DNA of 36,820 nucleotides from the sequence record PZ239915.1, one strand, 5' to 3'. The stretch comes from a phage. The number at the start of each line of letters is the position of its first letter. Position 1 is the first letter of the stretch. This document shows, piece by piece, positions 4,129 through 30,685 of this stretch. The notes under the pieces were generated by a model. The model searched no databases. It was not told the DNA's origin and worked only from the letters and a program-made list of their open reading frames with translations. A program made the translations under genes and the position numbers.

Positions 4129-4683
4129 ATGACTAAATTATTTATCCTTAATGGCCCCGCTGGAGTTGGAAAGGACACTATAGCGGATATCATGGTTGAG
4201 ACTGGTGTAGCCAAAGAAAAGGTATCATTCAAGTCACCAATGTTTAACGTTGCAAAAGGAATGCTATCAAGCGATGAATTTGATGGATTCATCAAGAATT
4301 ACGACAATAGAGACTATAAGGAATCGCCTCATGGATTTCTTGGCGGTATGACAGTTCGTGAATTTATGATTTGGATTAGCGAGTCTGTAATGAAGCCAGT
4401 CTTTGGTGATGATATTTTCGGTAAAAGGCTAGCCAAGTCACTTGGTGATGGTTGCTACATTTGCGCTGATGGTGGATTTGCTAGCGAGATTAAGCCACTG
4501 ATCGACGCTGGTGTTGAGGTCACGTTAATCAGATTGCATAGGGCAGGGTACACATTTGATGGCGATAGTCGCTCATACATTCACGGGGTGTGCGCAAGAG
4601 AAATTGATGTTCGTGTTGTTGATTGTGATATTGATGGAACATCAGCATTGGTAAGGCACGTAATAAATAGCACGAATTGCTAA
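4129..4683 (+). CDS. P-loop kinase, deoxynucleoside-monophosphate-kinase-like
   Basis: Walker A GPAGVGKDT near the N-terminus, as in phage dNMP kinases. Start set at the ATG 6 nt after GGAGAA (track gave 4105). C-terminus NSTNC is encoded by the palindromic box. Confidence 0.55.
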   Translation: MTKLFILNGPAGVGKDTIADIMVETGVAKEKVSFKSPMFNVAKGMLSSDEFDGFIKNYDNRDYKESPHGFLGGMTVREFMIWISESVMKPVFGDDIFGKRLAKSLGDGCYICADGGFASEIKPLIDAGVEVTLIRLHRAGYTFDGDSRSYIHGVCAREIDVRVVDCDIDGTSALVRHVINSTNC

Positions 4684-4710
4684 AGATAATAATAAAAACT
4701 GAGTTATCAT
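4666..4710 (+). promoter_or_regulatory. conserved palindromic box + -10-like hexamer
   Basis: AATAGCACGAATTGCTAAAG, 22 bp, TATCAT. Confidence 0.45.
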
Positions 4711-4751
4711 TAACACATCGAAACGAGATGAAACAAAATAGGAAGCACAAA

Positions 4752-4928
4752 ATGACTAAAATGATTTATTGCACCAAAAACAACTCCAAGACGCTGCCAT
4801 TTACAGTTAACAAGCCGTACAATGCAGAGTATCAAGGTGACGGATACTACAAGATTTATGGCGACGATATGACGTGGATTTTAGCGCCGATTGATGGTTC
4901 GCTGGTTGAATTTATTATCGCAGACTAG
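4752..4928 (+). CDS. hypothetical protein (58 aa)
   Basis: Track ORF 4677..4928 trimmed to the ATG at 4752 after AGGAAG; promoter box and CATCGAAACGAGA leader upstream. Confidence 0.45.
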   Translation: MTKMIYCTKNNSKTLPFTVNKPYNAEYQGDGYYKIYGDDMTWILAPIDGSLVEFIIAD

Positions 4929-4954
4929 CGCATCTAAAACATAGCTTTACAAGT

Positions 4955-4983
4955 GGGGGGCCTTTTGGCTCCCCTTTTTTTTG
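4955..4983 (+). terminator. rho-independent terminator
   Basis: 8-bp GC-rich stem (GGGGGGCC/GGCTCCCC), 4-nt loop, then a 9-T run. Confidence 0.6.
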
Positions 4984-16050: not shown

Positions 16051-16076
16051 AGCCCTCGCTTGAGGGCTTTTTTTCG
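16051..16076 (+). terminator. rho-independent terminator
   Basis: AGCCCTC/GAGGGCT stem, GCTT loop, 7-T run. Confidence 0.65.
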
Positions 16077-16079
16077 TCT

Positions 16080-16094
16080 GCAATATGCTATAAT
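16080..16094 (+). promoter_or_regulatory. extended -10 promoter candidate upstream of terminase small subunit
   Basis: TGCTATAAT directly after a terminator. Confidence 0.35.
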
Positions 16095-16117
16095 CTGGAA
16101 TCAACAAAGGAGGACTT

Positions 16118-16624: not shown

Positions 16625-16641
16625 CAATAAGAGGGTATAAC

Positions 16642-18207
16642 ATGTCTTTAGTATGGGAAGAAATGACCATTCAGGAAAAGATGGCCGTTAAGGCGATATC
16701 AGAACACAGCTTCGAGGGCTTTCTTCGTTGCTGGTTCCAGATCACGCAAGGCGAGCGATACATCCCTAACTGGCATCACAAGTACTTGTGCAGAATAATT
16801 GACGAGATTATCGCAGGAGAGCGCAAGGACACCATCATTAACATAGCACCAGGAAGCGGAAAGACGGAAATTGCCTCAATCCACTTCCCGGCCTATTCGA
16901 TGGTTAAGCTTAGGAAGGTGCGCAACCTTAACATCTCTTTTGCTGACTCCCTGGTTAAGCGTAACTCGAAGCGAGTACGTGACCTTATCAAGTCTCAAGA
17001 ATTTCAGTCACTCTGGCCATGCAAGTTTGGCACTTGCAAAGACGATGAGCTTCAGGTTCTTGATGAGAGTGGCAAGGTTAGATTTGAGTCAATATCAAAG
17101 GCGGCTGGAGGCCAGATTACTGGCGCTCGCGGTGGGTACATAACCGAAACATACAGCGGAGCCGTTCTTTTGGATGACTTTGACAAACCCGCAGATATGT
17201 TATCAGCAGTGTACCGCTCGAATAATCACGTAATGCTTAAAAATACGATTCGCTCACGTCGAGCCAGTTCTGTAAAAGGAAAAGCGACACCAATCATTTC
17301 GATACAGCAGCGGCTTCACGTCAATGACTCAACCTATTTCATGATGGAAGGCGGCATGGGTATAGAATTCGATTTGATTAAGATACCAGCATTAGTTACT
17401 GAGGATTACATTGATTCACTTCCTGACTGGATTAAAGATCAGTTTGCTGAGGACGTACTAAGCAGCGAATACATTGAGCGAGATGGCGTAAAGTACTACA
17501 GCTACTTTCCTAAAAAGGAATCCGTAAACGACCTGGTGGCAATGTGGGATAGCGACCCGTACACATTCCTTAGTCAATATCAGCAGGAGCCAGTAGCGCT
17601 GGGTGGCAACCTAATTAACGTGGACTGGTTCCAGAGAATCAGTGATACGTTCAGACCTCCAGCTAAGTACGACTATCGATTCATAACTTGCGATACCGCA
17701 ATGACCACTAAAAGTTACAGCGACTTCTCTGTTCTTCAGTTGTGGGGCTATAAAGATGCTAAGATTTACCTTATTGATCAGCGCAGGGGTAAATGGGAGG
17801 CCCCAGAGTTGGAGGCTGAACTGCTGGACTTCGAGAAGAAATCAAGGGCAACCAGTCAGTCAGATGGTATCCTCAGAAAGATTATTATCGAGAAGAAAGC
17901 GTCTGGTATAGGCCTGATTCAATCAGCTGGCAGGGTTATGCGAACACCGATAGAGCCATACGTACCGGATAATGACAAGCTAACCAGGGTGATGAGTGCA
18001 CTACCACAGATTAAGGCTGGTAACGTAGTTCTTCCAGAGTCATCGCCGTGGCTAAACGGATTGCTCACTGAGGTTGCGGCTTTTACGGCAGATGACTCGC
18101 ATAAGCACGACGACCAAATTGACTGTCTAACAATGGCGGCAAACCTTGTACTTAACATCGCGGATGATCCTAAGTCGAGACTGATGCGCATAGCTGGAAT
18201 GAAATAG
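16642..18207 (+). CDS. terminase large subunit
   Basis: 521 aa; Walker A APGSGKT in the N-terminal ATPase region, acidic nuclease-type C-terminal half; position before the portal. Confidence 0.85.
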   Translation: MSLVWEEMTIQEKMAVKAISEHSFEGFLRCWFQITQGERYIPNWHHKYLCRIIDEIIAGERKDTIINIAPGSGKTEIASIHFPAYSMVKLRKVRNLNISFADSLVKRNSKRVRDLIKSQEFQSLWPCKFGTCKDDELQVLDESGKVRFESISKAAGGQITGARGGYITETYSGAVLLDDFDKPADMLSAVYRSNNHVMLKNTIRSRRASSVKGKATPIISIQQRLHVNDSTYFMMEGGMGIEFDLIKIPALVTEDYIDSLPDWIKDQFAEDVLSSEYIERDGVKYYSYFPKKESVNDLVAMWDSDPYTFLSQYQQEPVALGGNLINVDWFQRISDTFRPPAKYDYRFITCDTAMTTKSYSDFSVLQLWGYKDAKIYLIDQRRGKWEAPELEAELLDFEKKSRATSQSDGILRKIIIEKKASGIGLIQSAGRVMRTPIEPYVPDNDKLTRVMSALPQIKAGNVVLPESSPWLNGLLTEVAAFTADDSHKHDDQIDCLTMAANLVLNIADDPKSRLMRIAGMK

Positions 18208-18247
18208 CACAAATTGCTAAACACTAAAGCCACGGATGGCGTATAGT
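18202..18247 (+). promoter_or_regulatory. conserved palindromic box + -10-like hexamer
   Basis: AAATAGCACAAATTGCTAAA, 22 bp, TATAGT; 29-bp block GTATAGTTACTTCACACAAACGAGAGGAG identical to 30239-30267. Confidence 0.5.
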
Positions 18248-18276
18248 TACTTCACACAAACGAGAGGAGAAGAAAG

Positions 18277-18609
18277 ATGAAGGCAGTATTTAAAGGTTAT
18301 AAAAAAGCTGGTCGTTTGGAATTTACTATTGGTAAGATTTATGAGTTATCAGAAACACGCGGAGTGGGTGGATATATGGGGGTGACTGATGACAGTGGCT
18401 TTCGGGCAATATTTATCCCAGACAACATCTATGATTTCGAGGTGTTGATCACAGATGAATTTATCGGTAAAGAAAAGCAATTCAAATACTACATCAATGG
18501 TGAAGCTGTTTCTAAAGTCAAGTTCGATGATACGCTGTTATGCGTCAAGGAATTTAAATCTGATGGCATTGATACATCATCAATCAAGTTCGAAGTAAAA
18601 TTCGAGTAA
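18277..18609 (+). CDS. hypothetical moron protein (110 aa), paralogue of 30274..30627
   Basis: Inserted between terminase and portal, with its own promoter box and terminator. Shares FKGYKK...NG..V.K..FDD.LL...KS.G...FEV.FE with the ORF at 30274. Confidence 0.55.
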   Translation: MKAVFKGYKKAGRLEFTIGKIYELSETRGVGGYMGVTDDSGFRAIFIPDNIYDFEVLITDEFIGKEKQFKYYINGEAVSKVKFDDTLLCVKEFKSDGIDTSSIKFEVKFE

Positions 18610-18630
18610 CCACAAAAGCTATGATAAACT

Positions 18631-18653
18631 AGCCCCTACATGGGGCTTTTTTA
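18631..18653 (+). terminator. rho-independent terminator
   Basis: AGCCCC/GGGGCT stem followed by TTTTTT. Confidence 0.6.
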
Positions 18654-18665
18654 TTGGAGAAAAAC

Positions 18666-19928
18666 ATGGTCAAGACAGACAGCTACGCCAATATCTTTCT
18701 AGGCGGCAGTGATGGTAGTGAGATTTACGGAAGTTTACAGAATCAGGATCCTACAATTCTGGCTTCGCTTTATGCGAATAATGCCCTGGTTCGTAGAATT
18801 ATCGACACAATCCCGGAGACGGCATTGGCGGCAGGATTCCACATTGATGGCATTGATGATGAACCTGAATTCTGGTCTCGCTGGGACTACCTAGAGCTAA
18901 CAAAACACATCAATGAAGCCTGGTCTTGGGCTAGATTGTTCGGAGGTTCTGCAATTGTTGCTATCGTTAAGGACAATAGGGCATTAACAAGTCCGGTCAG
19001 GGAAGGTGCAGAACTTGAAACTGTACGCGTTTACGACCGCACACAAGTAAAAGTACAAACTCGAGAGGAGAATCCACGCAACGCACGTTTCGGTAAGCCG
19101 CTAACCTATCGCATCACCACTAATGAGAGCGATATGTTCTACGATGTGCATTACAGCCGCATTCACATTATTGATGGCGAGAGAGTTCCTAATGCAATGC
19201 GTCGGCAAAATGATGGCTGGGGCCGCAGCGTTCTATCAAGTGACATTCTTGACTCAATCAAGGATTACACCAACTGCGAGCGGCTGGCTACTCAGTTACT
19301 TAAGCGTAAGCAGCAGGTGGTCTGGAAGGTAAAAGACCTGGCATTGCTATGTGATGACAGCGAAGGGGTTGGTGCAGCCAGATTGCGGCTTGCCCAGGTT
19401 GACAACAATAGTGGAGTTGGTCAGGCAATTGGGATTGACGCGGAATCAGAAGAATACAGCGTTCTTAACTCTGACATTGGCGGGATTGATGCGTTCCTGG
19501 ATAAGAAGTTTGACAGAATCGTTGCTCTGAGCGGCATCCATGAAATAATCCTGAAGAACAAGAACGTCGGCGGCTTATCATCAAGCCAGAATACAGCGCT
19601 TGAGACATTCCATAAGCTAGTCGATCGCAAGCGTAACGCTGAACTGCTGCCGATTCTCGGGTTCCTGATTCCGTTTATTTCAGACGAGCAAGAATGGTCG
19701 GTGGAGTTTAACCCTCTAGCCCAGGAGTCAAGCAAGGACAAGGCGGAGACTCTGGAGAAGAATGTAAACAGCATTGCGACACTAATTGCAGCTGGCGCTA
19801 TGGATACTAGCGAGGCACGTGATACCCTACGCACTATCGCACCAGAAATTAAGATTGGTGATGGCGATATTGAACCTAAAGAACCAGTCCAGGAAGCAAT
19901 GGCGCCGACAGAGGAACCTAATGAATGA
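18666..19928 (+). CDS. portal protein (putative)
   Basis: 420-aa ORF directly after the terminase; track TTG start 18654 replaced by the ATG at 18666 after GGAGA. Assignment rests mainly on synteny. Confidence 0.65.
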   Translation: MVKTDSYANIFLGGSDGSEIYGSLQNQDPTILASLYANNALVRRIIDTIPETALAAGFHIDGIDDEPEFWSRWDYLELTKHINEAWSWARLFGGSAIVAIVKDNRALTSPVREGAELETVRVYDRTQVKVQTREENPRNARFGKPLTYRITTNESDMFYDVHYSRIHIIDGERVPNAMRRQNDGWGRSVLSSDILDSIKDYTNCERLATQLLKRKQQVVWKVKDLALLCDDSEGVGAARLRLAQVDNNSGVGQAIGIDAESEEYSVLNSDIGGIDAFLDKKFDRIVALSGIHEIILKNKNVGGLSSSQNTALETFHKLVDRKRNAELLPILGFLIPFISDEQEWSVEFNPLAQESSKDKAETLEKNVNSIATLIAAGAMDTSEARDTLRTIAPEIKIGDGDIEPKEPVQEAMAPTEEPNE

Positions 19929-19961
19929 TGAATTTGATGGCTTTTAGTGAGGAGAATTGGG

Positions 19962-21047
19962 ATGTGTAAAATCCGCTATGACAGCGCAAAGTTTAAGGCA
20001 ACAATCGACGAGAATGGATTCTTAGTCGACACGCCAGTGGTGGCGCGTCTAGGCGTGCAAGTCTACTACATGGAGGACGGTCGAACGGTTCGGGAGTTTC
20101 GCCCAGCGGAGGAGGTTTTCAAGGATGAATCTCTAGCCAGCTACCAGGGCAAGCCAATGACTCTTGACCATGTTTTCGTTAACTCAGAGAACGCTAAAGA
20201 GGTAGTAGTTGGCTCAGTTGCTGGAAAGGCAGAGCCATTAGGCAGCTCCGTGGTTGCTCCAATTGTTATTTACGATAACACAGCAATTAAGGAAGCCATG
20301 GCAGGTAACGCAAAGGAGTTATCCGTTGGATACTCATCAGTTATTGATTACACCCCCGGCTGGGGCGACCCTGTTACTGGCGAGTACTTCCTTAAGTCTG
20401 AAAGTGAGCTATTCGACGTACCAGAAGGATGGCAGGAGTTCGACGCAATTCAGCGTGACATTAAAGTGAACCATCTGGCAATGGTGTATCGCGGTCGCGC
20501 AGGTATTGCCAAATTGAATATGGACGGTGAGCAGGAAAACCCGTATACTACTGACGTTGATATCAATAAAGAGGATAAACAGGAAATGATTAAGATTAAA
20601 CTCGACGGCGCGAAGGAATTTGAAGTCGCCCCGGAAGTCGCTTCTCACATCGAAGCGCTGAACGCAAAGGCTGACACCGCAATCGCAGAGCGCGATTCTC
20701 TGAAAGCTAAAGTAGATGCAATGCCAGCTGAAATCGAAGCTGCCGTTGCTAAAGCGAAAGCTGATGCTGATGCCCTAGCCGCTCTGGTTGCTGTTGCTGC
20801 TGAGGCTGGTGTTAAGGCTGACGGTCTGGATGCTAAAGGCATTAAAGTTGCTTACGTTAAAGAAGTCTCCGGTCTTGATGTTAGTGAGAAGTCTGACGCA
20901 TACATCGACGCGGCATTCGACATTGCCAAAGAATCTGATAAAATGGCTGAAGTACGTAAAGCAACTACTGCTTCCGACAAATCTGACAGCGCCGATGAGC
21001 CTAAGAAATTAGACCCACGTGCTCGTTTAGCTAAAATTAAGAAATAA
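19962..21047 (+). CDS. prohead scaffold/protease-like protein
   Basis: ATG at 19962 after GGAGAA (track GTG at 19947). C-terminal third is an Ala/Lys/Asp/Glu-rich predicted coiled coil typical of scaffolds. Sits between portal and capsid. Confidence 0.5.
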   Translation: MCKIRYDSAKFKATIDENGFLVDTPVVARLGVQVYYMEDGRTVREFRPAEEVFKDESLASYQGKPMTLDHVFVNSENAKEVVVGSVAGKAEPLGSSVVAPIVIYDNTAIKEAMAGNAKELSVGYSSVIDYTPGWGDPVTGEYFLKSESELFDVPEGWQEFDAIQRDIKVNHLAMVYRGRAGIAKLNMDGEQENPYTTDVDINKEDKQEMIKIKLDGAKEFEVAPEVASHIEALNAKADTAIAERDSLKAKVDAMPAEIEAAVAKAKADADALAALVAVAAEAGVKADGLDAKGIKVAYVKEVSGLDVSEKSDAYIDAAFDIAKESDKMAEVRKATTASDKSDSADEPKKLDPRARLAKIKK

Positions 21048-21059
21048 GGAGTTATAAAC

Positions 21060-21581
21060 ATGGCAATTCGTTCCGTAGCACTGGCTGGTATGGTTTCTGA
21101 TACTTCTCTGTACAACATCGACGGCGCTTGCGTAGTTGGCGGCGCAGCAGCCATTCCGGTTGGCACTTTTGTTGGCGTTACATCCGCTCAGCCTGTAGAT
21201 GGTCACAAGGTTGTTGGCCTCCCTGCTGTAACTGGTACACCAGTTAAACCTTATGGTGTTGTTGTTAAATCTCATTACGAGACTCCAGATGGCACAGCTC
21301 GCGTAAATGAAGCGGTTAACGTAATGACTCATGGTCGAATCTGGGTTCGTACAACTCTAGCGGCTGCGCCAGTTTTTGGTAGTAAGGTTTACGTAAACGC
21401 GAGTGGCGTTGTTGCTGCTGAGGCTGCTACCACTACCTGGGAAACTGGTTTTACATTTGCTGGTGGCTATGTGTCGGCTTACGCTGGCGGCGCTGACCCA
21501 ATTAAGCAAGGTGAAAGCGTTGATGGTGCAATGGTTGAGGTTCAGTTGATTCAATCAGCAGACTCAACTGTCGCTGCTTAA
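21060..21581 (+). CDS. putative capsid decoration/structural protein
   Basis: 173-aa Gly/Ala/Val-rich ORF between scaffold and major capsid genes; followed by a strong terminator. Function from position only. Confidence 0.4.
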   Translation: MAIRSVALAGMVSDTSLYNIDGACVVGGAAAIPVGTFVGVTSAQPVDGHKVVGLPAVTGTPVKPYGVVVKSHYETPDGTARVNEAVNVMTHGRIWVRTTLAAAPVFGSKVYVNASGVVAAEAATTTWETGFTFAGGYVSAYAGGADPIKQGESVDGAMVEVQLIQSADSTVAA

Positions 21582-21596
21582 TAATTAAGATATATA

Positions 21597-21621
21597 AAGC
21601 CTCCTTCGGGAGGTTTTTTAT
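21597..21621 (+). terminator. rho-independent terminator
   Basis: GCCTCC/GGAGGT stem, TTCG loop, T run. Confidence 0.65.
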
Positions 21622-21638
21622 TGCCCGTCATCCCACCA

Positions 21639-21666
21639 TTGCGTGGGCTAAAAACTCGTGTATAAT
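21639..21666 (+). promoter_or_regulatory. sigma70-like promoter upstream of the major capsid gene
   Basis: TTGCGT, 16-bp spacer, TATAAT. Confidence 0.45.
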
Positions 21667-21704
21667 GAACCCGTAGACACCTAACTGAAAAGGAACAATA
21701 AAGA

Positions 21705-22652
21705 ATGGCTATTAAATTTGATGCAGAACAAGCAAAAATCACCGCTCACCTCGAGCAAATGGGCGTAGATAAGGCAGATGCCGCTGGCATCTGGACCGTT
21801 AAGCAGTTGACTGCTACTCTGAATCGCGCTTACGAGAAAGAATACCCGGATAACTCCGTTGTTAATATCTTCCCTGTAAGTAACGAAATTCCAAGTCACG
21901 CAAAATACTTTGAGTACCCGGAGTTCGATGGTGTAGGTATTGCTCAGATTATCGCTGATTACTCTGATGACCTGCCGCTGGTTGATGCTTTCATGACTGA
22001 GAAACAGGGTAAAGTTTTCCGCTTCGGTAACGCGTTCCTCGTTTCTGTTGACGAAATCAAAGCTGGTGCAGCAACAGGTCAGCCACTATCAACTCGCAAG
22101 CAAGCCCTGGCTTTTGAAGCGCACGACAACCTGCTGGATAAACTGGTTTGGTCAGGTTCAGTTCCGCACGGTATTACTAGTGTATTTAACGCTCCTAACG
22201 TTAACCAGGTAACAGCATCTGCTGGTGGTTGGCAGTCAGCAGCAGTAGCGGTGGCAGATATCACAAACATGATTGACGCTATCGAGACGACAACTCAGGG
22301 TGTTCACAGTGCAACCGATATTATTCTGCCAGCATCCGCTCGTCGACTGATGCAGCAGTTGGTTCAGAATACTACTATCAGCTACGGCGAGTTGTTTACT
22401 CGTAACAACCCAGGCGTAACACTGCGTTACCTTCAGTTCCTGGATAACTATGATGGCGCAGGTGGTAAAGCGGCTCTTGCATTTGAGAAAGACCCTCTGA
22501 ACCTCAGCATTGAGATTCCGGAAGCAACTAACGTACTTCCTGGTCAGCCAAAGGATTTGCACTTCAAGTACCCTGTTACCTCGAAGTCTACCGGGTTGAT
22601 TATCTACCGTCCGCTGACTGTTTCGGTACTGAAAGGAATTACCTACCCTTAA
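21705..22652 (+). CDS. major capsid protein
   Basis: 315-aa ORF with its own sigma70-like promoter (TTGCGT-16-TATAAT) and a strong terminator; size and position match a phage major capsid. Confidence 0.7.
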   Translation: MAIKFDAEQAKITAHLEQMGVDKADAAGIWTVKQLTATLNRAYEKEYPDNSVVNIFPVSNEIPSHAKYFEYPEFDGVGIAQIIADYSDDLPLVDAFMTEKQGKVFRFGNAFLVSVDEIKAGAATGQPLSTRKQALAFEAHDNLLDKLVWSGSVPHGITSVFNAPNVNQVTASAGGWQSAAVAVADITNMIDAIETTTQGVHSATDIILPASARRLMQQLVQNTTISYGELFTRNNPGVTLRYLQFLDNYDGAGGKAALAFEKDPLNLSIEIPEATNVLPGQPKDLHFKYPVTSKSTGLIIYRPLTVSVLKGITYP

Positions 22653-22658
22653 TAAATC

Positions 22659-22682
22659 GCCCTCTTAGGAGGGCTTTTTTTC
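22659..22682 (+). terminator. rho-independent terminator
   Basis: GCCCTC/GAGGGC stem, TTAG loop, 7-T run after the capsid gene. Confidence 0.7.
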
Positions 22683-22744
22683 GCCTGTACCAAATCGTTT
22701 TGTTGAGTTATAATCACTGAATCAGATAAACAAAGGAGATTAAA

Positions 22745-22990
22745 ATGATTCGTTTAGAACACACTGGCGCTTGCTTTATCATGATTGATGGTAAGGGTTA
22801 TGTTCCAGGTGATTTGATTGAAACCGAAGTGCTTAGCGCTGGCATTAAGCAGCTAATTGCAGAAGGTCGCCTAACTCTGGCTGATGACCCTAAAGAGTCA
22901 AAAAAGATTGCTGAAGAGATTTCGAGCAAGCGTAAGCGCAAAGAACCGAAAACCATCTCTGAAGCTGAGACTGGTAACGAGTACAAATAA
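22745..22990 (+). CDS. hypothetical structural-module protein (81 aa)
   Basis: Track ORF with AAGGAGA RBS between capsid and connector genes. Confidence 0.5.
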   Translation: MIRLEHTGACFIMIDGKGYVPGDLIETEVLSAGIKQLIAEGRLTLADDPKESKKIAEEISSKRKRKEPKTISEAETGNEYK

Positions 22991-23031
22991 CAAACAGGGC
23001 GCTTCGGCGTCCTTTATTGTATGGAGCTAAT

Positions 23032-23433
23032 ATGAATGATGCAATTTTGGCATTTATGCGATCGCTTGTTCCTGCGCTCAAAGCGGTGGATGACGAATCA
23101 ATTAATGTATGGATTGATTTGGCACGTCTATACGTATGCGAAAGCAAGTTTGGCGCAGACAAAGACAAGGCTACCGCGCTTTATGCACTACACCTGATGC
23201 TTGCTGATGGCGCATTTAAGGGTGAGAATGAGGGTCTGGAAACATACAGTCGTAGAATGGCAAGTTACGCACTGAGTGGTGAGTTCTCTATCACTTATGA
23301 TAACCAATCAGCAATCCAGGGTGACTTATCATCTTCCTCATGGGGCCGCATGTACAAAGCACTCCTCCGCAAGAAAGGTGGCGGCTTTGGATTGATTACT
23401 TCCGCTGCTGGCGGTGGGTGCGGTTGCCGATGA
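23032..23433 (+). CDS. putative head-tail adaptor
   Basis: Track TTG start 23017 replaced by the ATG at 23032 after GGAG; position after the capsid gene. Confidence 0.45.
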   Translation: MNDAILAFMRSLVPALKAVDDESINVWIDLARLYVCESKFGADKDKATALYALHLMLADGAFKGENEGLETYSRRMASYALSGEFSITYDNQSAIQGDLSSSSWGRMYKALLRKKGGGFGLITSAAGGGCGCR

Positions 23434-23801
23434 ACTACAGCGAAATAGAATCAATCACTCGCGCTGGTATTAACTTCTTCAGCGATTCAAATGGCGTTTA
23501 CGAGATGAGTACAGGCGCTGGATATGTTGAAATCGTTAACGGCGTTGAGGTAGAAGTGCCAGCAAAAACATTTCAGTTAAAGGGCTTGGTGCGAGAAATC
23601 AAGACGCGCGATATAGATGGTGAGTTTATCCAGTTTGGCGATAAGCGCGGAATCTTCACGGCCCAGGCAGAAATCAAGCAGGGTTATCAGATTAAGGTTG
23701 ATGGTGAGACTTTTATTGTTGTTGACTCGAGACCTGTTAAACCGACAGGGACAGTTGTTGGGTATCGACCTATTCTTCGTAGGGTGGCTACTTATGGCTA
23801 G
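23430..23801 (+). CDS. putative head closure / head-tail joining protein
   Basis: Track ORF trimmed to the ATG at 23430 that overlaps the upstream TGA; ~120 aa, size and position typical of head-closure proteins. Confidence 0.45.
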   Translation: MNYSEIESITRAGINFFSDSNGVYEMSTGAGYVEIVNGVEVEVPAKTFQLKGLVREIKTRDIDGEFIQFGDKRGIFTAQAEIKQGYQIKVDGETFIVVDSRPVKPTGTVVGYRPILRRVATYG

Positions 23802-24231
23802 AAATATTGGGAGCGTTGCTACGTTTGAGAAATCTATTGCTGACTGGATTGACAGGGCCGATAAGGGATTTGAGATTGTGGTGGCTAATACGGTCACTAA
23901 AACAGCTAACGCAATTGTTGACCTTTCGCCCGTCGACACTGGTAGGTTCAAGGCTAACTGGCAAATCACCGCAAACTCACCAGCCCAACAGTCTCTTAAT
24001 GAGTACGACCAGACTGGTGGCCAGACAAAAACATATCTCGCCAGACAGGCCAGGGCAGTTGCCAATTCAAAGGCCACTAGTGTTATTTATATCACTAACC
24101 GACTTGATTACGCTGCTGGGCTTGAGTATGGCGCATCAAATCAGGCTCCAGCCGGTGTTTTAGGCGTGGTGCAAGCAAGGTTGGGTAGGTATTTCCAGGA
24201 AGCAGTAGAGGAGGCGCGTCGTGCAATATGA
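23794..24231 (+). CDS. putative neck / tail completion protein
   Basis: Track ORF trimmed to the ATG at 23794 overlapping the upstream gene end. Confidence 0.45.
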   Translation: MARNIGSVATFEKSIADWIDRADKGFEIVVANTVTKTANAIVDLSPVDTGRFKANWQITANSPAQQSLNEYDQTGGQTKTYLARQARAVANSKATSVIYITNRLDYAAGLEYGASNQAPAGVLGVVQARLGRYFQEAVEEARRAI

Positions 24232-24622
24232 ATTATCATTAGCGGCAAGGAAATTCGTCGACGATTTGTTGGTAAATGAATTTCCCGTCAGGTATCCAGT
24301 TGCGTGGGAGAATACTGCATTCACTCCTCCAGCAGATGGGTCAATCTGGCTTAAGTACGACTACACAGAAGTTGATACTGTAACCTACGGATTAAGCAGG
24401 AAGTGCAAATACTACGTAGGCATGGTGCAGGTTTCTGTTTTCTTCAGCCCTGGCATTGGAATTGATAAGCCGAGACGGATTGCTAATCAATTGGCAGAAT
24501 CTATCGTTGATGGTACAATGCTTGACAGCGGGACCATTTATGAGTCTGGAGTTGTTAACCCGGTTATCAAATCCAAGTCTGGGTGGTTTATCCCGGTTCG
24601 TTTTTATGTTCGTCTAGACTAA
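24221..24622 (+). CDS. putative tail terminator (gpU-like)
   Basis: GTG start 8 nt after GAGGAGG; 133 aa immediately upstream of the major tail protein. Confidence 0.45.
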   Translation: MQYELSLAARKFVDDLLVNEFPVRYPVAWENTAFTPPADGSIWLKYDYTEVDTVTYGLSRKCKYYVGMVQVSVFFSPGIGIDKPRRIANQLAESIVDGTMLDSGTIYESGVVNPVIKSKSGWFIPVRFYVRLD

Positions 24623-24637
24623 CAAAAGGAAAAATAC

Positions 24638-25294
24638 ATGGCTCATCTCAGCAATGGCACGCAGGTCTTCGTAGAAGGCTCTCGCGGTGACGCAATTGAC
24701 GTAACTGCAATTTCTAACGCAGTTACCCCTGTTTTAACTGTATCTGACGCATCTGGTTTGGTTGTTGGTGATTACCTGCTTTTCACCTCATCGGCCTCTA
24801 CACTTCTGGCCGACAAGCAAGTACGAATTACTGCAATTTCTGGCACTTCGGTAACAGTTGAAGGTATTGATACCTCCAGCACTACCAAGTTCCCAGCTGG
24901 TTTAACTGGTGAAGTTGTTAAGATCACTTCATGGTTCGAAGTTCCTTGTGTTCAGGATGTATCTACTGATGGTGGCGAACAGCAATTCGTTAACTTCCAG
25001 TGTCTTTCTGATGGCCGTGAACAGCAGATTCCTACTTATAAGTCTGCGGTAACGAACACCTTCACCTTCGCTCACGAGTACACCAACCCGGTCTATCCGG
25101 TTCTGCGTAACTATGATGAGTCAGGACAGGTTGTTGCGATTCGTCTGTTTGTTCCTCGCGCCAGTGAAATGCGCTTGCAGTCCGGCACTATCGCTTTCAA
25201 CGACACGCCAACTATCGGCGTAAACGAAATCGAAACGGTATCCATCGCTGTATCCATTCGTGGTCGGCTGTCCTCAGTGGCAGCGGAAGTTTAA
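24638..25294 (+). CDS. major tail (tube) protein
   Basis: 218-aa ORF followed by a strong terminator and directly upstream of the G/GT chaperone pair. Confidence 0.6.
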   Translation: MAHLSNGTQVFVEGSRGDAIDVTAISNAVTPVLTVSDASGLVVGDYLLFTSSASTLLADKQVRITAISGTSVTVEGIDTSSTTKFPAGLTGEVVKITSWFEVPCVQDVSTDGGEQQFVNFQCLSDGREQQIPTYKSAVTNTFTFAHEYTNPVYPVLRNYDESGQVVAIRLFVPRASEMRLQSGTIAFNDTPTIGVNEIETVSIAVSIRGRLSSVAAEV

Positions 25295-25300
25295 AACACA

Positions 25301-25323
25301 AACCCTCTTCGGAGGGTTTTTTA
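25301..25323 (+). terminator. rho-independent terminator
   Basis: CCCTC/GAGGG stem, TTCG loop, 6-T run after the major tail gene. Confidence 0.65.
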
Positions 25324-25376
25324 TTGCTACCAACCTGCTATAATGCAATCTCACAAACAATAAGAGGATTAAAAAA

Positions 25377-25691
25377 ATGGCAAAGTTCAAACTTTCACTG
25401 GCGGCACTTCCTGACTTTAAGTTGCCTGTAAAATTCAAGTTGGCTAATGACCAGGATGTAGAGGTTATCTTTACAGTCAAGCACAAGAAAACATCTGAGT
25501 TGCAGGAATTACTTAGCAAGGAAGATTTAAGCACCAAAGAACTTATTATGGCAATTGCCTCTGATTGGGATTTGGAAGAGGAATACAACGAAGATAACGT
25601 TAATGAGTTCGCCGACCTGTTCCCAGCCTCAACAGTTGCATTAACTACCGCTTATATGCAAGCACTTGCTGGTCAGCGAGTAAAAAACTAA
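25377..25691 (+). CDS. tail assembly chaperone (gpG-like)
   Basis: 104-aa acidic protein before the tape measure; ends at the slippery heptamer A_AAA_AAC followed by TAA. Confidence 0.7.
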   Translation: MAKFKLSLAALPDFKLPVKFKLANDQDVEVIFTVKHKKTSELQELLSKEDLSTKELIMAIASDWDLEEEYNEDNVNEFADLFPASTVALTTAYMQALAGQRVKN

Positions 25692-26011
25692 AACGAGCGG
25701 TGTATCTACAGTACCAGTCAGAGCCAACTGATGCAGAACTGGAAGCTATTGGGATGCGCCGCTCTGATTACGAAGATGAAGAGCCTGAGGCTTTGCACTT
25801 CGACGATAACATGATGAAGGCGTGGGACATTTACTGTTCAATGGCGACGCAGTGGAGAGTTGGAGCTAATGGGGCTACAGGACTTGATTACAACGTGCTA
25901 AATTTCCTCTTTAGAGTGTATAATGTCTCAGAAGAAGAATTGGTGCTCAGCGATTTACGCATCCTTGAAGCTAAGGCTCTAGAGATGATGGATAACCTGA
26001 GAAAAAAATAA
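25377..26011 (+). CDS. tail assembly chaperone fusion (gpGT-like) via programmed -1 frameshift
   Basis: Slippery site AAAAAAC at 25682-25688 in the zero frame of the G-like ORF; the -1 frame is open from there to the stop at 26009-26011 (track ORF 25700..26011). Confidence 0.55.
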
Positions 26012-26030
26012 CCCGCTTCGGCGGGTTTTC
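26011..26030 (+). terminator. rho-independent terminator
   Basis: CCCGC/GCGGG stem, TTCG loop, TTTT. Confidence 0.55.
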
Positions 26031-26046
26031 TATTATGGAGGCTTAG

Positions 26047-29025
26047 ATGGCAACAAATGAATTAGCCGGAATCACACTAGCCGTAGACGTATCGCAAGTA
26101 GACAGGGGAACGCAATCCCTGCAAAAGTTCAGACAGGCAAACCAGCAAGCCGCTTCCGGCATTAGTGAGTTCGTCAATGCAGAGCAGGTCGCAAAGACCC
26201 AGGCAAAAGACACGGCTCGCGCACTGGCTGAACAGCAAGCATCTTTAGCTAAATTGCAAACGGCCATTGACCCAACAGCGGCAAAGTTCCGTAAGCTGCA
26301 AGAGGCTGCTGTAGGTCTGGATAAGGCATTCGCGGCTGGCGTAGTTCCTGATGAGGAGTTTTTCCGCTTAGGTGAGGCCCTTGAAACGCAGAACGCAAAG
26401 CTCGCTCGTTCACGTGCGGCGCTAACTGAAGAAGGTAGAGCAGCTGCTCAGGCTGCAAAAGATAAAGCAAAGGCAAAGGCTGAAGCTGACAGGTTCATTG
26501 CTTCACTTGAGCGCCAGGCTCAAGCGGCAACATTGACGCGCGAGGAGTACTTAAAGTTACAGGCTGCTCAGCTTGGCGTAAGTTCCCAGGCAGCACCAAT
26601 CATTGACAGAATCGCCGACGCATCACAGAAGGCAAACACCCAATTAATTGCTCAGAGCAAGGCTTTTCAACGCTCTGGCTTAAGCGCAGGTCAATACAAG
26701 GCTGCAATCTCTCAATTGCCAGCGCAGATTACAGATATTGGAACATCACTTGCTGGCGGCATTCCGATTTGGCTTATTGCAATTCAGCAAGGTGGGCAGA
26801 TCAAGGATGCATTTGGCGGTATTGGCAACACCTTTAGATTCGCGCTTGCAGCCTTAAATCCATTCAATGTTGCTGTTGGGGTTTTGGGTGGCGCGCTTGT
26901 TGCTCTTGGTGTTGGTGCAGCTCAGGCTGAAAGTGAATTCAGAGCGCTAAACTCTGCTATCGCATTCTCCAACAACTCAACAATTACATCAATATCGCAA
27001 ATTAGAGAGTTGGTTAGTTCTGTATCTGATGCTACTGGAGCAACGAGAGGACTTGTAACTAGTATTGCAACAAGCCTTATTGAGCAAGGGAACCTTACGC
27101 TGACGCAGATTGACAAGATTACCAAATCAACCGCCAGATGGGCGCAGCTTACCGGAAAAGATGCAAAGGAAATTACTGGTTACTACAACCAGATTGCAAG
27201 CGACCCAATACAGGGATTGGTTGATTTGGATAAGCGCTTTAACTTCCTCACGCAGGGGCAGTTGACGACAATCGAAAACCTGAGAAAGACGAAGGGAGAG
27301 GTCGAGGCCGTTACCGCCGCAATTGACATTTTCAGCAAGTCTCAGGAAGCCAACCTTAACGACATAGCAGAGCAGTTAACTCCACTTGAGTTAGCCTGGA
27401 ATGATTTTAGAAAGTACATCTCTGATATCTGGGATGCAATTAGTCGTAGAACGGTCGGGGCGCTGAACCTATTTGTTGACGTAATCGCCGGAACGATTGA
27501 ACAGATCAGGGTATTAATTAACCAGGGTGATGTTCTGATTGGTGAATTCGTAATTAGCGCAACTCAGGCATTGCAGAACATTCCTGGTCTTGATGGCGTT
27601 GGTGATGATGTTATCAAGGGGCAGCAGAAGATTATCGATGCCGCCAAGAAGCAAAACCTTGAGCTAGAGAAGTCTATCAAGGAGCGCGATGCCAGAATCA
27701 GAGAGGGAGAGCTTGGTTACGTTACTCGCAGAGAAAATCAGAATACCAATGAGCAGTCAGGTACTGATGAGGAATTTGCAAAAAGGAAGAAGGCGCTTCA
27801 GGATGAGCTTGATGCGATCAAGAAGAACAGGAAAGAAGAAAATAGTAGGGTTAAGGAGCAAAGAGATTTAACAATTGGTTATGAATCTGGCGTTCTGGCG
27901 CTTCAGGCTCAACTCAAGGTGCTTCAGGAAAACAGGGATATTGGCGCAGTAATAAGCAATGAGCGCAAGCAGTATCTTCAGGAGGAGGCCAAATTCAGGA
28001 TTCTTGAGCAGAGACAACTTGATGGCTCAATTACCAAAGAGCAAGCAAGACTTCTCATTGAAAAGGATAAAGTTCTTGAGTTAGCCAGACAGAAGGCTGA
28101 GCTAGGTGATCAGATTGTTTTGCAGGAGCGAGCTAATAAGTTAGCTGAAGATAACCGCAAGAAGATTCTTCAGATTAACAATGAGGCAAGTAACATTGAT
28201 TTGGGTGCTGGTTTATCATCTCGCGAGCAGCAGAGAGCCAAAGAGATTCAGGCTCTTCAATCCAATCAGGTTAATGCTGGTGGTTCTGTTGATGATGTTG
28301 ATTTTCAGCAATTACTGGAAGCAAGAAAGGAATACTACAAGCAGGAGGATAATCTTAGGTCAGACTGGCAATCCGGTGTAACATCCACTCTCGCCGACTT
28401 GACAGAGAAGTACACTGACTACAACCAGATTGCTAAGGACTTAACTGTTGCGGCATTCGACGGGATCACAGATCAAATCACTAACCTTGTAACCACTGGT
28501 GAGACCAATTTTAGGGAGTTCACATCAAACATCCTCAAAATGATTGCGAAGATTGCAACTCAGTTACTTTTGGTTAAGGCTATTGAATCTACAATCAAGA
28601 GCTTTGGTGGTGGGGGAGGTGATGCGTTTGGCTCTTTTGCGTCTGCTATAGGTTTCGCTGGTGGCGGATACACTGGTGACGGCGGGAAGTATCAGCCAGC
28701 AGGAACGGTACACCGCGGTGAGTTTGTATTCACAAAAGAAGCAACAAGCCGAATTGGTGTTAAGAACCTATACGCACTAATGAAGGGTTACGCAAACGGC
28801 GGCGCTGTAGGCGGTCCATCTGGTTATGCTAATGGCGGATTGGTTTCTGGTGGAACTGATGTTAATGTTAGCGGCATCACTGTTAACGTGAACTCTGGTG
28901 TTGGAAGTGATCCAGAACAAGCTAAGGCACTGCAAAATGGAGTTAAGGCAATCGTAGCTGAAGAGATTGCTCAGTCCTTCCAGCAGGGTGGCAGGGCGTA
29001 TGCTTACCTTCGCGGATTCAACTAA
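26047..29025 (+). CDS. tail tape measure protein
   Basis: 992 aa, long predicted coiled-coil regions, Gly-rich C-terminal segment; located between the chaperone and minor tail genes. Confidence 0.85.
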   Translation: MATNELAGITLAVDVSQVDRGTQSLQKFRQANQQAASGISEFVNAEQVAKTQAKDTARALAEQQASLAKLQTAIDPTAAKFRKLQEAAVGLDKAFAAGVVPDEEFFRLGEALETQNAKLARSRAALTEEGRAAAQAAKDKAKAKAEADRFIASLERQAQAATLTREEYLKLQAAQLGVSSQAAPIIDRIADASQKANTQLIAQSKAFQRSGLSAGQYKAAISQLPAQITDIGTSLAGGIPIWLIAIQQGGQIKDAFGGIGNTFRFALAALNPFNVAVGVLGGALVALGVGAAQAESEFRALNSAIAFSNNSTITSISQIRELVSSVSDATGATRGLVTSIATSLIEQGNLTLTQIDKITKSTARWAQLTGKDAKEITGYYNQIASDPIQGLVDLDKRFNFLTQGQLTTIENLRKTKGEVEAVTAAIDIFSKSQEANLNDIAEQLTPLELAWNDFRKYISDIWDAISRRTVGALNLFVDVIAGTIEQIRVLINQGDVLIGEFVISATQALQNIPGLDGVGDDVIKGQQKIIDAAKKQNLELEKSIKERDARIREGELGYVTRRENQNTNEQSGTDEEFAKRKKALQDELDAIKKNRKEENSRVKEQRDLTIGYESGVLALQAQLKVLQENRDIGAVISNERKQYLQEEAKFRILEQRQLDGSITKEQARLLIEKDKVLELARQKAELGDQIVLQERANKLAEDNRKKILQINNEASNIDLGAGLSSREQQRAKEIQALQSNQVNAGGSVDDVDFQQLLEARKEYYKQEDNLRSDWQSGVTSTLADLTEKYTDYNQIAKDLTVAAFDGITDQITNLVTTGETNFREFTSNILKMIAKIATQLLLVKAIESTIKSFGGGGGDAFGSFASAIGFAGGGYTGDGGKYQPAGTVHRGEFVFTKEATSRIGVKNLYALMKGYANGGAVGGPSGYANGGLVSGGTDVNVSGITVNVNSGVGSDPEQAKALQNGVKAIVAEEIAQSFQQGGRAYAYLRGFN

Positions 29026-29055
29026 TTAACGGGGCTTAGGCCCCTAAGGATTTTT

Positions 29056-29406
29056 ATGGCTATTGATACATTTAATTACTGCACTCAAGTCCAAAATGGA
29101 GGCGGCTCATTCTCTAACACAAACAATGTGAGAATTGTTAGTTTTGGCAATGGTTACGAGCAGCGCGGTACGGGTGGCTATCGCAGCAACAAACGCAGTT
29201 ACCATATGACCTACACCAATAAGGACTGGCGTGAGGTGATGGATTTTTGCTTCAACCACATCATCACTCCATTCTTCTGGACAACTCCACAGGGTGATAC
29301 ATCAATGTTTGTTATCCAGCAGGACAGCATTAGTGTCACACCACTCAGTAAGGAAGTTCAGACTGTAAACATGCAATTCGTAGAAGTATTTAGCTCAATG
29401 AGTTAA
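29056..29406 (+). CDS. minor tail protein (lambda gpM-like)
   Basis: 116 aa, first gene after the tape measure, as in lambda M-L-K-I-J order; followed by a terminator. Confidence 0.6.
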   Translation: MAIDTFNYCTQVQNGGGSFSNTNNVRIVSFGNGYEQRGTGGYRSNKRSYHMTYTNKDWREVMDFCFNHIITPFFWTTPQGDTSMFVIQQDSISVTPLSKEVQTVNMQFVEVFSSMS

Positions 29407-29408
29407 AC

Positions 29409-29433
29409 TAAGCCCCATTAGGGGCTTTTTTTA
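29409..29433 (+). terminator. rho-independent terminator
   Basis: AGCCCC/GGGGCT stem, ATTA loop, 7-T run. Confidence 0.65.
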
Positions 29434-29445
29434 CTGGAGAAAATC

Positions 29446-30201
29446 ATGTTAAGTCCAAAGTTTGAAAATCAGTTGCAAAGCCTTTTCCCCGGAGAGATTG
29501 TTACTCTAATCCAGGTTGATGGAACCTCCTTTGGAAGTCTCGTTTACAACTTCCACAATGAGAACATTTCATACACGCCAGAAGAAATCATGCTAGCCCA
29601 AATGAATGGCGAGCCACTACCTGAGAAGACGATTACATTTCGCGGTGAAGAGTACGGGCCTCGACCATTTGGTATCTCGGGTATCAACATGACGTCTGAC
29701 GGCAAGGCCAACAAAGTTACGCTAACAGTATCAAACGTAGACCAGCGCATTAGCGCATTGATCCGTACCTATAATGGATTGGTTAAGGCAAAGGTCACCA
29801 TCTGGATTACTACGCGAGATAACATCAATGAAGACGGAAGCATTGCTGACGGGGACTATCGCAGATTCGTTTACTTCATTGAGCGACCAAAGCAGGTTGA
29901 CTACAAAACGGCATCATTTGAGCTAAGCAGCCCTATGGATATGGATGGCATTTACATTCCAGCGAGACTTGTTCAGTCTGTTTGCTATTGGGCTTCCAGG
30001 GGGTGGTATCGTAGCGGGAATGGTTGCGACTATGCTGGCAATCGTTATTTTAACAAGGATGACAATCCAGTTGATGACCCCTCTTTAGACTTCTGCGCTG
30101 GAACAGTAAACAGCTGTAAGATTAGGTTTGGTGAGAATAATCAGCTTTCATTTGGCGGATGCGCGGCAGCAAGCCTTCAGGCCAAAGCGAATCAGAGCTA
30201 A
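29446..30201 (+). CDS. minor tail protein (lambda gpL-like)
   Basis: 251 aa with a C-terminal Cys cluster (C-x...C-x...C-x4-C), consistent with the metal-binding C-terminus of L-type proteins. Confidence 0.65.
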   Translation: MLSPKFENQLQSLFPGEIVTLIQVDGTSFGSLVYNFHNENISYTPEEIMLAQMNGEPLPEKTITFRGEEYGPRPFGISGINMTSDGKANKVTLTVSNVDQRISALIRTYNGLVKAKVTIWITTRDNINEDGSIADGDYRRFVYFIERPKQVDYKTASFELSSPMDMDGIYIPARLVQSVCYWASRGWYRSGNGCDYAGNRYFNKDDNPVDDPSLDFCAGTVNSCKIRFGENNQLSFGGCAAASLQAKANQS

Positions 30202-30245
30202 ACAGCACGAATTGCTAAAGGAGATTTAAAAAGATGGGGTATAGT
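30201..30245 (+). promoter_or_regulatory. conserved palindromic box + -10-like hexamer
   Basis: AACAGCACGAATTGCTAAAG, 22 bp, TATAGT. Confidence 0.5.
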
Positions 30246-30273
30246 TACTTCACACAAACGAGAGGAGGTAAAA

Positions 30274-30627
30274 ATGTTCTACATTAAATTCAAAGGATAC
30301 AAAAAAGAAAAAGAAAAGTGCACTGGTTTGTTTTTTGTTGGCCGCATTTACACCTGCGGTGTTGTTGACTCAAACATGTACTATCAGACGCAGGATGAGA
30401 ATGGCAATATTGTAAAGTTTCAAAGTATTTTTCATGATGATTGTTACGACTTTTCAAGAATTGATACTCAGAGCAAGGTATTAGATGAGCATGATAACAA
30501 GATGAAATATCGAATGAATGGTGTTGATGTCACTAAGTCATTCTTTGATGATAAGCTACTGGAAGTTGAGCTGCTTAAATCAAGAGGTGTTTCAGTATTT
30601 ATAGATTTTGAGGTTTATTTTGAATAA
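30274..30627 (+). CDS. hypothetical moron protein (117 aa), paralogue of 18277..18609
   Basis: Inserted between L-like and K-like genes with its own promoter box upstream and terminator downstream. Confidence 0.55.
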   Translation: MFYIKFKGYKKEKEKCTGLFFVGRIYTCGVVDSNMYYQTQDENGNIVKFQSIFHDDCYDFSRIDTQSKVLDEHDNKMKYRMNGVDVTKSFFDDKLLEVELLKSRGVSVFIDFEVYFE

Positions 30628-30647
30628 ACAAAATTAGTGTTAAACTA

Positions 30648-30673
30648 GGTCAATCGAAAGATTGGCCTTTTTT
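30648..30673 (+). terminator. rho-independent terminator
   Basis: GGTCAAT/ATTGGCC stem followed by TTTTTT after the second moron gene. Confidence 0.5.
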
Positions 30674-30685
30674 ATTGGAGATAAA

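Follow-up and report, generated by a model that had tools for sequence, protein, structure and literature searches.

Two related gene cassettes in the structural module

The window analysed here is a stretch of phage DNA of 36,820 nucleotides (sequence record PZ239915.1), and on its sequence it belongs to an Rtp-like, T1-like coliphage of the Drexlerviridae. Positions 16000-32000 show 95.9% identity to Escherichia phage vB_EcoD_SU57 (SU57), which was described as virulent in the SU57 paper, and 85-90% identity to many Rtp-like Drexlerviridae (Braunvirinae) coliphages; no integrase or repressor was seen in the annotated relatives, in which no systematic search for them was made. Two small open reading frames (ORFs) lie within the structural module, both on the plus strand as are all features given below unless a strand is stated. 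ORF A (18277..18609, 110 aa) stands between the terminase gene TerL and the portal gene, and ORF B (30274..30627, 117 aa) between the L-like and K-like tail genes. An earlier sequence-only reading had placed them correctly at these two junctions and had taken them for divergent paralogues, each with a promoter and terminator of its own. The kinship was borne out, as the two products show 39% identity over their full length in BLASTP (E 2e-11) and both match the profile of PHROG 14592 from position 1 or 2 to 116 of 116, with E values of 2.2e-34 for ORF A and 4.7e-38 for ORF B. The first ends in IKFEVKFE and the second in IDFEVYFE, and they are referred to as the A-type and B-type members of the family.

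Cassette A opens with a 21-nt direct repeat (DR) box (aaATAGCACAAATTGCTAAAc, 'A' group, 18202..18222) that matches the published consensus aaATAGCACnnnTTGnTAAAA and has its ATAGCAC at 18204. The TerL stop codon TAG (18205-18207) falls inside the box (AAATAGCAC, 18202-18207). At the inspected A-slot loci that include the TerL end, this gene ends in AAATAG or AAATAA whether the cassette is present or not, and thus the first half of the box overlaps coding sequence. A -10-like hexamer, TATAGT, follows at 18242..18247, 38 nt downstream of the start of ATAGCAC, and transcription is predicted to start near 18254. Together with the leader CACACAAACGA and the Shine-Dalgarno sequence GAGAGGAG, this hexamer makes up a 29-bp block (18241..18269) that is shared with cassette B. 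Measured against relatives with an empty site, insert A runs from 18208 to 18621 and consists of the promoter, the ORF and 12 nt of 3' untranslated region. What follows at 18622..18665, namely TGATAAACTAG, a hairpin, a T-run and the GGAG of the portal ribosome-binding site (RBS), lies outside the insert; the empty TerL-portal site reads AAATAAGCG joined directly to TGATAAACTAG, the hairpin and TTTTTTATTGGAGAAAAACATG. Since the same hairpin, T-run and RBS occur in relatives without the gene, these elements belong to the backbone, as the TerL terminator and the portal RBS. The true start of the portal gene is the ATG at 18666.

Cassette B has its DR box (aaACAGCACGAATTGCTAAAg, 'G' group, 30200..30220) directly after the TAA stop codon of the L-like gene (30199-30201), with ACAGCAC at 30202 and TATAGT at 30240..30245, again 38 nt downstream, and its copy of the 29-bp block at 30239-30267. 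Behind ORF B stands a predicted intrinsic terminator module of its own (30638..30676), made up of TGTTAAACTAG, a hairpin with a GAAA loop and a T-run, which moves with B-type genes to other slots. The empty L-K site consists of TAA followed by GGAGAAATAAATG, and insert B (30202..30676) has therefore brought along promoter, ORF, hairpin and T-run; it also restores the RBS of the K-like gene, whose true start is the ATG at 30686. The earlier claim that each gene is followed by a hairpin and T-run terminator stands in so far as both are present (18631-18647 after ORF A, -17.2 kcal/mol, z -3.7; 30647-30668 after ORF B, -14.3 kcal/mol, z -3.6), but that of cassette A is the backbone terminator of TerL found at empty sites.

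As had been noted before, a copy of the box precedes each ORF, at 18204 and 30202, with TATAGT at the same distance, and the exact 29-bp block (GTATAGTTACTTCACACAAACGAGAGGAG) occurs just twice in the window, at 18241-18269 and 30239-30267; none was expected in 100 shuffles, even when 3 mismatches were allowed. This -10, leader and RBS module is also the consensus of the family cassettes in other phages. The promoter of cassette B is most similar to the DR promoter at 637, with 84% identity, and shows only 77% to that of cassette A; promoter modules too are shuffled, and the exact identity therefore reflects a shared module. A GGAG-containing spacer in the cassette B promoter was considered as a relic of the old L-K junction and was rejected, the spacer being just 84% identical to the DR promoter at 637. 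The 3' flanks of the two cassettes are homologous as well (TGWTAAACTAG, hairpin, CTTTTTTATTGGAGA), and TAAACTAG is found in the window at these two flanks and nowhere else; in the predicted fold its A-tract pairs with the U-tract.

Occupied and empty sites among relatives

The slots were surveyed with a family hidden Markov model (HMM) over loci of the window phage and of named relatives. The TerL-portal slot is occupied in the window, SU57, G8, IME253, JulesPiccard, ACG-M12 and phiEB49, the L-K slot in the window, SU57, ACG-M12, phiEB49 and G8, and a third slot, between the M and L genes, in JulesPiccard. Clean empty sites were found in the close relatives vB_EcoS-12210III, JeanPiccard and Rogue1. 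The first of these, which is 86% identical across the module and has no family member, shows a TerL-portal gap of 48 bp and an L-K gap of 10 bp, and relatives with 86-90% identical virion genes carry neither A nor B. The hairpin is kept in all 124 records that share the portal junction, 27 of which extend into the A-type coding end (at least 80% coverage), and further records hold more divergent alleles at this site (Rtp rtp22, IME253, JK06, Sd1 and the Opt-719 group). Among the 237 records for the L-K junction, only 10 continue into a B-type gene (at least 80% coverage). By tBLASTn, A-like genes were found in 27 records and B-like genes in 15, and family members are carried by the BASEL phages Bas01-Bas03. 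The GC content is 37.7% in insert A and 33.3% in insert B, against 43-48% in the flanking genes and 45.9 +/- 3.2% (standard deviation, 350-nt windows) in the module.

The sequence-only reading had regarded A and B as accessory genes, a view that homologues at these positions in all relatives, without promoters of their own, would contradict. When synteny was compared at both sites the opposite was found, and the empty sites, patchy occupancy, low GC content, third slot, other cargo at the same junctions, distinct promoter class, a frameshifted allele and a copy in a myovirus (the last four described below) agree with that view. On these comparisons of sequence, A and B are optional accessory genes, and a new example of an established kind.

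Tail-module junctions also hold unrelated cargo. A reverse-strand Rha-like regulator is located at the L-K junction of IME253 (locus L008, 16570-17067), a 160-aa ORF at that of JulesPiccard (L002, 15629-16111), and HNH endonucleases are found between TMP and M, as in ACG-M12 (L003, 17224-17721); the intergenic junctions of the tail module are general insertion hotspots. A tRNA-Arg gene (anticodon TCT, 15731-15808, plus strand) lies upstream of the terminase genes of the window, and likewise in SU57, ACG-M12 and other relatives. In GenBank, some near-identical genomes of T1-like coliphages are filed under other hosts (Pseudomonas, Campylobacter, Vibrio and Klebsiella entries); Pseudomonas phage PsgS01F, for example, has 44,679 bp, and Escherichia phage UALMA_PCEc3 is equal in size. 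Such records fit the reputation of T1-like phages as laboratory contaminants.

Probable exchange of cassettes between slots and phages

Every B-type copy, in whatever slot, ends with TGTTAAACTAG, GGTCAATCGARAGRTTGGCC and TTTTTTATTGGAG, including those at the M-L junction of JulesPiccard and the L-K junction of AugustePiccard. At the A slot, alleles are 70-100% identical to the window through the TerL end, the box, the -10 and the leader, 30-50% identical in the body of the ORF, and 97-100% identical from the last seven codons (IKFEVKFE and stop) onward. Conserved ends around a divergent body point to allele replacement by homologous recombination in the flanks, and this pattern supports the earlier suggestion of a shared mobile mechanism. 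The relatives encode RecE, Erf-like and single-stranded DNA-binding (SSB) proteins. It may be proposed that the cassettes are passed on and exchanged during co-infection through homologous recombination in their conserved regulatory ends, and that the phage's own RecE/Erf-type recombinase would help in this exchange.

The cargo itself appears in altered forms. At the L-K junction of phage TR3 (L010, 1215-1560), a 69-aa ORF stands between a degenerate DR box with TATAGT and the family leader on one side and the B-type terminator module on the other. This ORF equals just the SH3-like N-domain (HMM E 7e-6), which shows that the cargo is modular at the level of domains. ACG-M12 (L003, 6036-6367) and phiEB49 (L004, 40194-40549, minus strand), which belong to different subfamilies, carry nearly the same A-type allele. 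In it a 1-nt deletion in the poly-A tract of the linker (AATAAAAAAAGC) leads to a product with the N-domain only, and the ORF of the C-domain is intact in the -1 frame. The allele could be a pseudogene, the result of slippage, or a homopolymer sequencing error. A programmed -1 frameshift was rejected because the heptamer is out of canonical phase.

The family also reaches beyond the T1-like phages. A member was found in two independent assemblies of a Vequintavirinae-like myovirus (contigs of 84 kb and 92 kb from different samples), whose DNA shows 73% identity to phita32 and Alma. It sits among small ORFans between a family-A DNA polymerase gene and an NT5C gene (L015, 3980-4990; L017, 2480-3490), with a perfect TTGACA-N17-TATAAT promoter in front and, directly 3' of it, two T1-type DR boxes (TTT group), each with a -10-like hexamer at +38. 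The DNA similarity to the window is limited to the two conserved ends of the gene. Several small ORFs near this member show the G..Y.V...V.DD.G SH3-like signature. The myovirus copy favours a transfer of cassettes from one phage family to another and speaks against a role in the virion; a scan of IMG/VR for further contexts returned just phiEB49 and CEB_EC3a.

We consider it rather probable, on this evidence, that the A-type and B-type genes are two copies of a mobile accessory-gene cassette of T1-like phages. It might be argued that such cassettes are selfish or near-neutral cargo, kept by recombinogenic regulatory ends that copy ORFs from genome to genome. The patchy distribution, the frameshifted allele, the very low GC content and the extreme divergence would all suit cargo of this kind, as would the lack of detectable homology to characterised proteins. 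This seems improbable, however, when the fold is conserved and confidently predicted, the C-domain keeps 58-77% identity and invariant residues within each type, both paralogues are retained together in many phages, and the genes have a strong Shine-Dalgarno sequence and a conserved leader.

A predicted promoter class built on the direct repeat

What the sequence-only reading described as a palindromic box does precede both ORFs, but it is not specific to the window, being the published 21-nt direct repeat of T1-like phages. A published account gives 21 sites for the repeat in phage TLS and notes it in T1, Rtp and Rogue1 as well, oriented with transcription and about 76 nt upstream of start codons, and assigns no role to it (PMC11447400). 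Ten copies and two variants were found in the window, all oriented with the downstream genes, and the ATAGCAC positions of the ten are 637, 3579, 4667, 12208, 13455, 18204 and 30202 on the plus strand and 8734, 9201 and 36788 on the minus strand. A -10-like hexamer follows 38 nt after ATAGCAC in nine of these boxes and 39 nt after it in the remaining one (TATAGT four times, TATAAT, TATCAT and others), and an ATG, where it was located by script, stands at +72 to +85 (73 nt in A, 72 nt in B). The box contains a dyad, TAGCA-N5-TGCTA, near -42, which by its position has the geometry of a class II activator site. No conserved -35 element was found at 16-18 bp at the boxes, TTGCTA lying 22 bp from TATAGT, and matches to the canonical sigma-70 promoter were not enriched in the window.

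Two other identities of the box were tried and rejected. A sigma-54 promoter calls for GG at -24 and GC at -12 (TGGCAC-N5-TTGC), whereas the box (TAGCAC-N3-TTGC) has AG for GG and a spacer of 3 nt for 5 nt, and the -10 found 22 bp downstream would be left unexplained. The T4 MotA box lies about 12 bp from its -10. The likeness of the box to it (TGCTT) is superficial, the distance here being 22 bp.

Elsewhere the boxes stand before non-structural genes (clusters of small ORFans, a polynucleotide kinase gene, Erf and a gene for a putative phage lipoprotein adjoining rtp44), and in ACG-M12 they are likewise found upstream of non-structural genes. In the region 36458-36788 (minus strand) of the window, the box at 36788 is followed by an ORF of 81 aa that is the positional equivalent of ACG-M12 gp40, a 'putative phage lipoprotein' adjoining an rtp44-like membrane protein. 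The late module is organised differently. Here perfect TATAAT hexamers without a box, placed right behind terminator hairpins, precede TerS, MCP, g81 and the G-like chaperone gene (16085-16093, 21661-21666, 22709-22714 and 25336-25344); two of these promoters, those of TerS and the G-like gene, are extended (TGCTATAAT). Box-less promoters that follow terminators fit the description of the T1 late region as a series of 'transcriptons'. As the boxes elsewhere front non-structural genes, A and B import a promoter class that is not late into the late operon. Host sigma-70 RNA polymerase would transcribe the cassettes from the class that otherwise drives non-structural (early or middle) genes, and the cassette genes would therefore follow a schedule different from that of the surrounding operon. 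No transcriptome of a T1-like phage was found in the literature.

A third cassette of the same design (4665..4982) has a DR box, TATCAT at +38 and the leader CATCGAAACGAG. Its gene (ORF 4752-4928) is the equivalent of rtp62 and encodes a 58-aa standalone SH3 protein of the DUF7244 family (E 4e-29), and a strong terminator with a T-run (4955-4974) follows just upstream of the holin gene.

The arrangement of the promoters also raises the question of whether the DNA, and not the protein, is under selection, the DR promoters serving to renew or strengthen the transcription of virion genes that follow (portal to capsid after A, K-I-J after B) with the ORFs as passengers. Phages with empty sites have no promoter between the TerL or L-like hairpin and the next gene, so that read-through must occur there; between 16 and 36 kb there are no DR-box promoters besides those of cassettes A and B, and terminator-like hairpins are enriched in the module, with 31 against 17.5 expected. 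Each cassette, however, ends in a terminator ahead of the downstream gene, and phages without cassettes express the same virion genes. In about 80 sequence clusters the ORFs have stayed intact and their domains conserved, and TR3 and the myovirus keep an ORF between the same regulatory ends. We therefore give a purely regulatory role little chance.

The encoded proteins

According to an AlphaFold2 model made with 52 family sequences, the product of ORF B has an SH3-like barrel of five strands at residues 1-63 and a beta-beta-alpha-beta C-domain at residues 77-116, with residues 66-74 between them as a disordered linker; the whole protein reached a pLDDT of 83, and the C-domain modelled alone one of 96. 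Mean pairwise identity across the family is 0.35 in the N-domain, 0.11 in the linker, which varies from 9 to 35 residues, and 0.52 in the C-domain. By their C-terminal ends the sequences fall into two types (A, 30 sequences; B, 21), and within each the C-domain is 58-77% identical with invariant residues. The family is small: about 80 clusters at 90% identity were found among 5.8 billion proteins, nearly all on contigs of about 45 kb, and an exhaustive scan of 1.84 billion representatives gave 45 HMM hits. Longer proteins returned by a deep HMM search were weak beta-repeat matches and included no informative fusion. The products of ORFs A and B are mildly acidic (pI 5.3-5.4), and no signal peptide or transmembrane segment was seen in them by eye, with no predictor run. 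Structural neighbours in BFVD were uncharacterised phage proteins only, including many standalone SH3-like ORFans of 60-70 aa.

The SH3-like N-domain suggests one specific function, that of an auxiliary lysis factor with an SH3-type cell-wall-binding module, as was proposed for the standalone DUF7244 protein. A lysis role of the latter is a published hypothesis (PMC13164509), and the DUF7244 gene of the window has the same cassette design and adjoins the holin gene. The resemblance is weak, however. Against DUF7244 (PF23896) the N-domain of A scored 12.9 bits (E 0.12, below the gathering threshold of 27 bits) and B gave no hit, whereas the control ORF 4752-4928 scored 100.8 bits, and profile-profile comparison with hhalign gave a P value of 2.5e-4 and a probability of 43%. 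The best structural neighbours of the N-domain are FeoA-type and eukaryotic-type SH3 folds, not SH3b wall-binding domains; A and B lie away from the lysis genes and show no signal peptide or transmembrane segment by eye, and the DUF7244 role on which the argument leans is itself a hypothesis. A lysis function is accordingly very unlikely.

Existing annotation points elsewhere again. In SU57 gene B is called a 'putative tail fiber protein' because of its similarity to gp37 of phiEB49, a protein that has no annotation of its own, and PHROG 14592 is labelled 'virion structural protein' in the category 'head and packaging', a label repeated in re-annotated RefSeq records. If it were right, A and B would be genuine minor virion or decoration proteins, encoded beside the parts they bind (portal and tail tip) and given their own promoter for high copy number. 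The genes do lie within the structural module, and some decoration and adhesin proteins do contain SH3-like or small beta domains. No experiment was found behind the label, however, and the two published virion proteomes of T1-like phages that were consulted (Niu 2014, AHP24-type phages; Rogue1) are from phages with empty slots and are uninformative either way. Relatives with nearly the same virion genes dispense with both A and B, the gene type changes slots, the myovirus copy lies among early-region ORFans by a DNA polymerase gene, one allele is frameshifted in two phages, and the promoter class is unlike that of the neighbouring virion genes. On the first four of these grounds the labels 'virion structural protein' and 'tail fiber protein' are probably wrong for the family, and we regard a virion role as hardly to be expected.

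Our tentative preference, held with less than even confidence, is that the role of the A and B proteins is one of host or defence interaction, that is, counter-defence or some other non-essential manipulation of the host, and not that of a virion component. The product would be a soluble cytoplasmic adaptor whose variable SH3-like N-domain binds a variable partner, and the conserved beta-beta-alpha-beta C-domain would pair with itself or with the paralogue. A broader and rather doubtful extension would make the PHROG 14592 proteins arms-race effectors, with a hypervariable head and linker, carried on the conserved pairing domain and tuned to variable host immunity proteins, the DR cassette as the vehicle of transfer and the DR box as the mark of a temporal regulon. 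Such effectors would either inhibit these immunity proteins or be decoys picked up by immunity sensors, in the manner of Gp54 of Bas11; the cassettes would move them between slots and phage families by recombination at the conserved ends, and a phage or host factor bound at -42 would read the box.

Several points weigh against reading A and B as mobile accessory genes directed at the host. Searches of Pfam, NCBIfam, PADLOC and PDB sequences with A, B and the family profile gave nothing meaningful, the structural neighbours are uncharacterised or generic, and the PHROG and RefSeq label speaks for a structural protein. No convincing target-site duplications or direct repeats were found at the ends of the inserts, nor any recombinase signature. 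Empty TerL-portal sites could be deletions and not ancestral states, and the frameshift shared by ACG-M12 and phiEB49 loses its bearing on function if it is the sequencing error mentioned above. For the DR box several roles have been proposed, as a stoperator, an enhancer-binding site or an UP-like element (PMC11447400), and promoter activity, timing and terminator efficiency are here read from the sequence.

The analysis corrects an annotation that is propagating for an optional, mobile and probably non-structural gene family. It also offers a testable handle on the 21-nt repeat, in that the DR box has a fixed distance of 38 nt to the -10, forms a class apart from the late promoters and moves with cassettes, even into a myovirus. 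Finally, it puts forward a small, hypervariable family of two-domain proteins as candidates for host or defence interaction in the T1-like group, which is widely used for screens of defence systems.

Comparison with known systems

The boxes of the window agree with the T1-like repeat described in the re-annotation of TLS, which cites the T1 genome paper (PMC11447400), in consensus, orientation and distance of about 75 nt to the start codons, and mostly carry the published middle triplets AAA and GAA; boxes of the TTT group occur in relatives and on the myovirus contig. Likewise, the late region falls into units bounded by promoters and terminators, as in the 'transcriptons' of T1-like phages. 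A fixed 38-nt spacing to the -10, two promoter classes and a link to cassettes were not reported in that work.

The DUF7244 protein of the KanT1 paper is a small, SH3-like and non-universal 'shell' protein of T1-like phages, found as a standalone SH3 protein in 188 of 522 Drexlerviridae and taken by the authors as a possible lysis aid (PMC13164509). Its copy in the window shares the design of DR promoter, gene and terminator, and the N-domain of A and B resembles it weakly. A and B differ in having an additional C-domain and a hypervariable linker and in sitting at virion junctions, and homology lies below significance. Gp54 of Bas11 (PDB 9axb) is also a small coliphage protein with an SH3-like beta-barrel; it is not essential and has a promoter of its own, acts as the trigger of CapRel(SJ46), and its authors suspect it of an anti-defence function (Zhang et al. 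2024, PMC11578894). It comes from another phage group and has a single domain with a six-stranded barrel. Homology to Gp54 was rejected, the resemblance being structural only with no sequence signal.

The sequence-only reading called the cassettes morons, after the concept developed for lambdoid phages by Hendrix and Juhala and reviewed in 'The moron comes of age' (PMC3594210). Like morons, they are extra genes between conserved virion genes in some relatives only, with a predicted promoter of their own and, for B, a predicted terminator, and with a composition unlike that of their neighbours (33-38% against 46% GC). In the strict sense of a gene expressed from a prophage, with benefit to the lysogen, the term probably does not apply, since the closest relative is described as virulent and prophage expression or lysogenic conversion would not come into play. 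In addition, the promoter belongs to the phage's DR-box class and is not a generic host promoter, and cassette A borrows the terminator of the backbone.

Accessory cassettes in structural operons and the shuffling of regulatory repeats are both established, and the concept is therefore not new. The closest published mechanism is that of PeSL, a type of mobile regulatory cassette through which T4-type phages shuffle modules (Arbiol et al. 2010, PMC2839356). The PeSL element is a single compact motif with a sigma-70 -35/-10 consensus and an embedded stem-loop, whereas the cassettes described here have no -35 at 17 bp and carry promoter and terminator at opposite ends of the gene, with hairpins 330-400 nt from the promoter; PeSL-like pairs of terminator and then promoter do exist elsewhere in the late module of the window. 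Excised mini-circles that hold one ORF and one chimeric cassette are a further mark of the PeSL type. In both systems, variable ORFans are set between conserved promoter and stem-loop sequences, regulatory sequences mark the limits of insertions and deletions among related phages, and a few units sit inside virion modules beside genes of no assigned role. Homologous recombination between regulatory repeats, which was proposed to carry promoter and terminator along with the PeSL genes, is also the route by which the DR cassettes would be exchanged.

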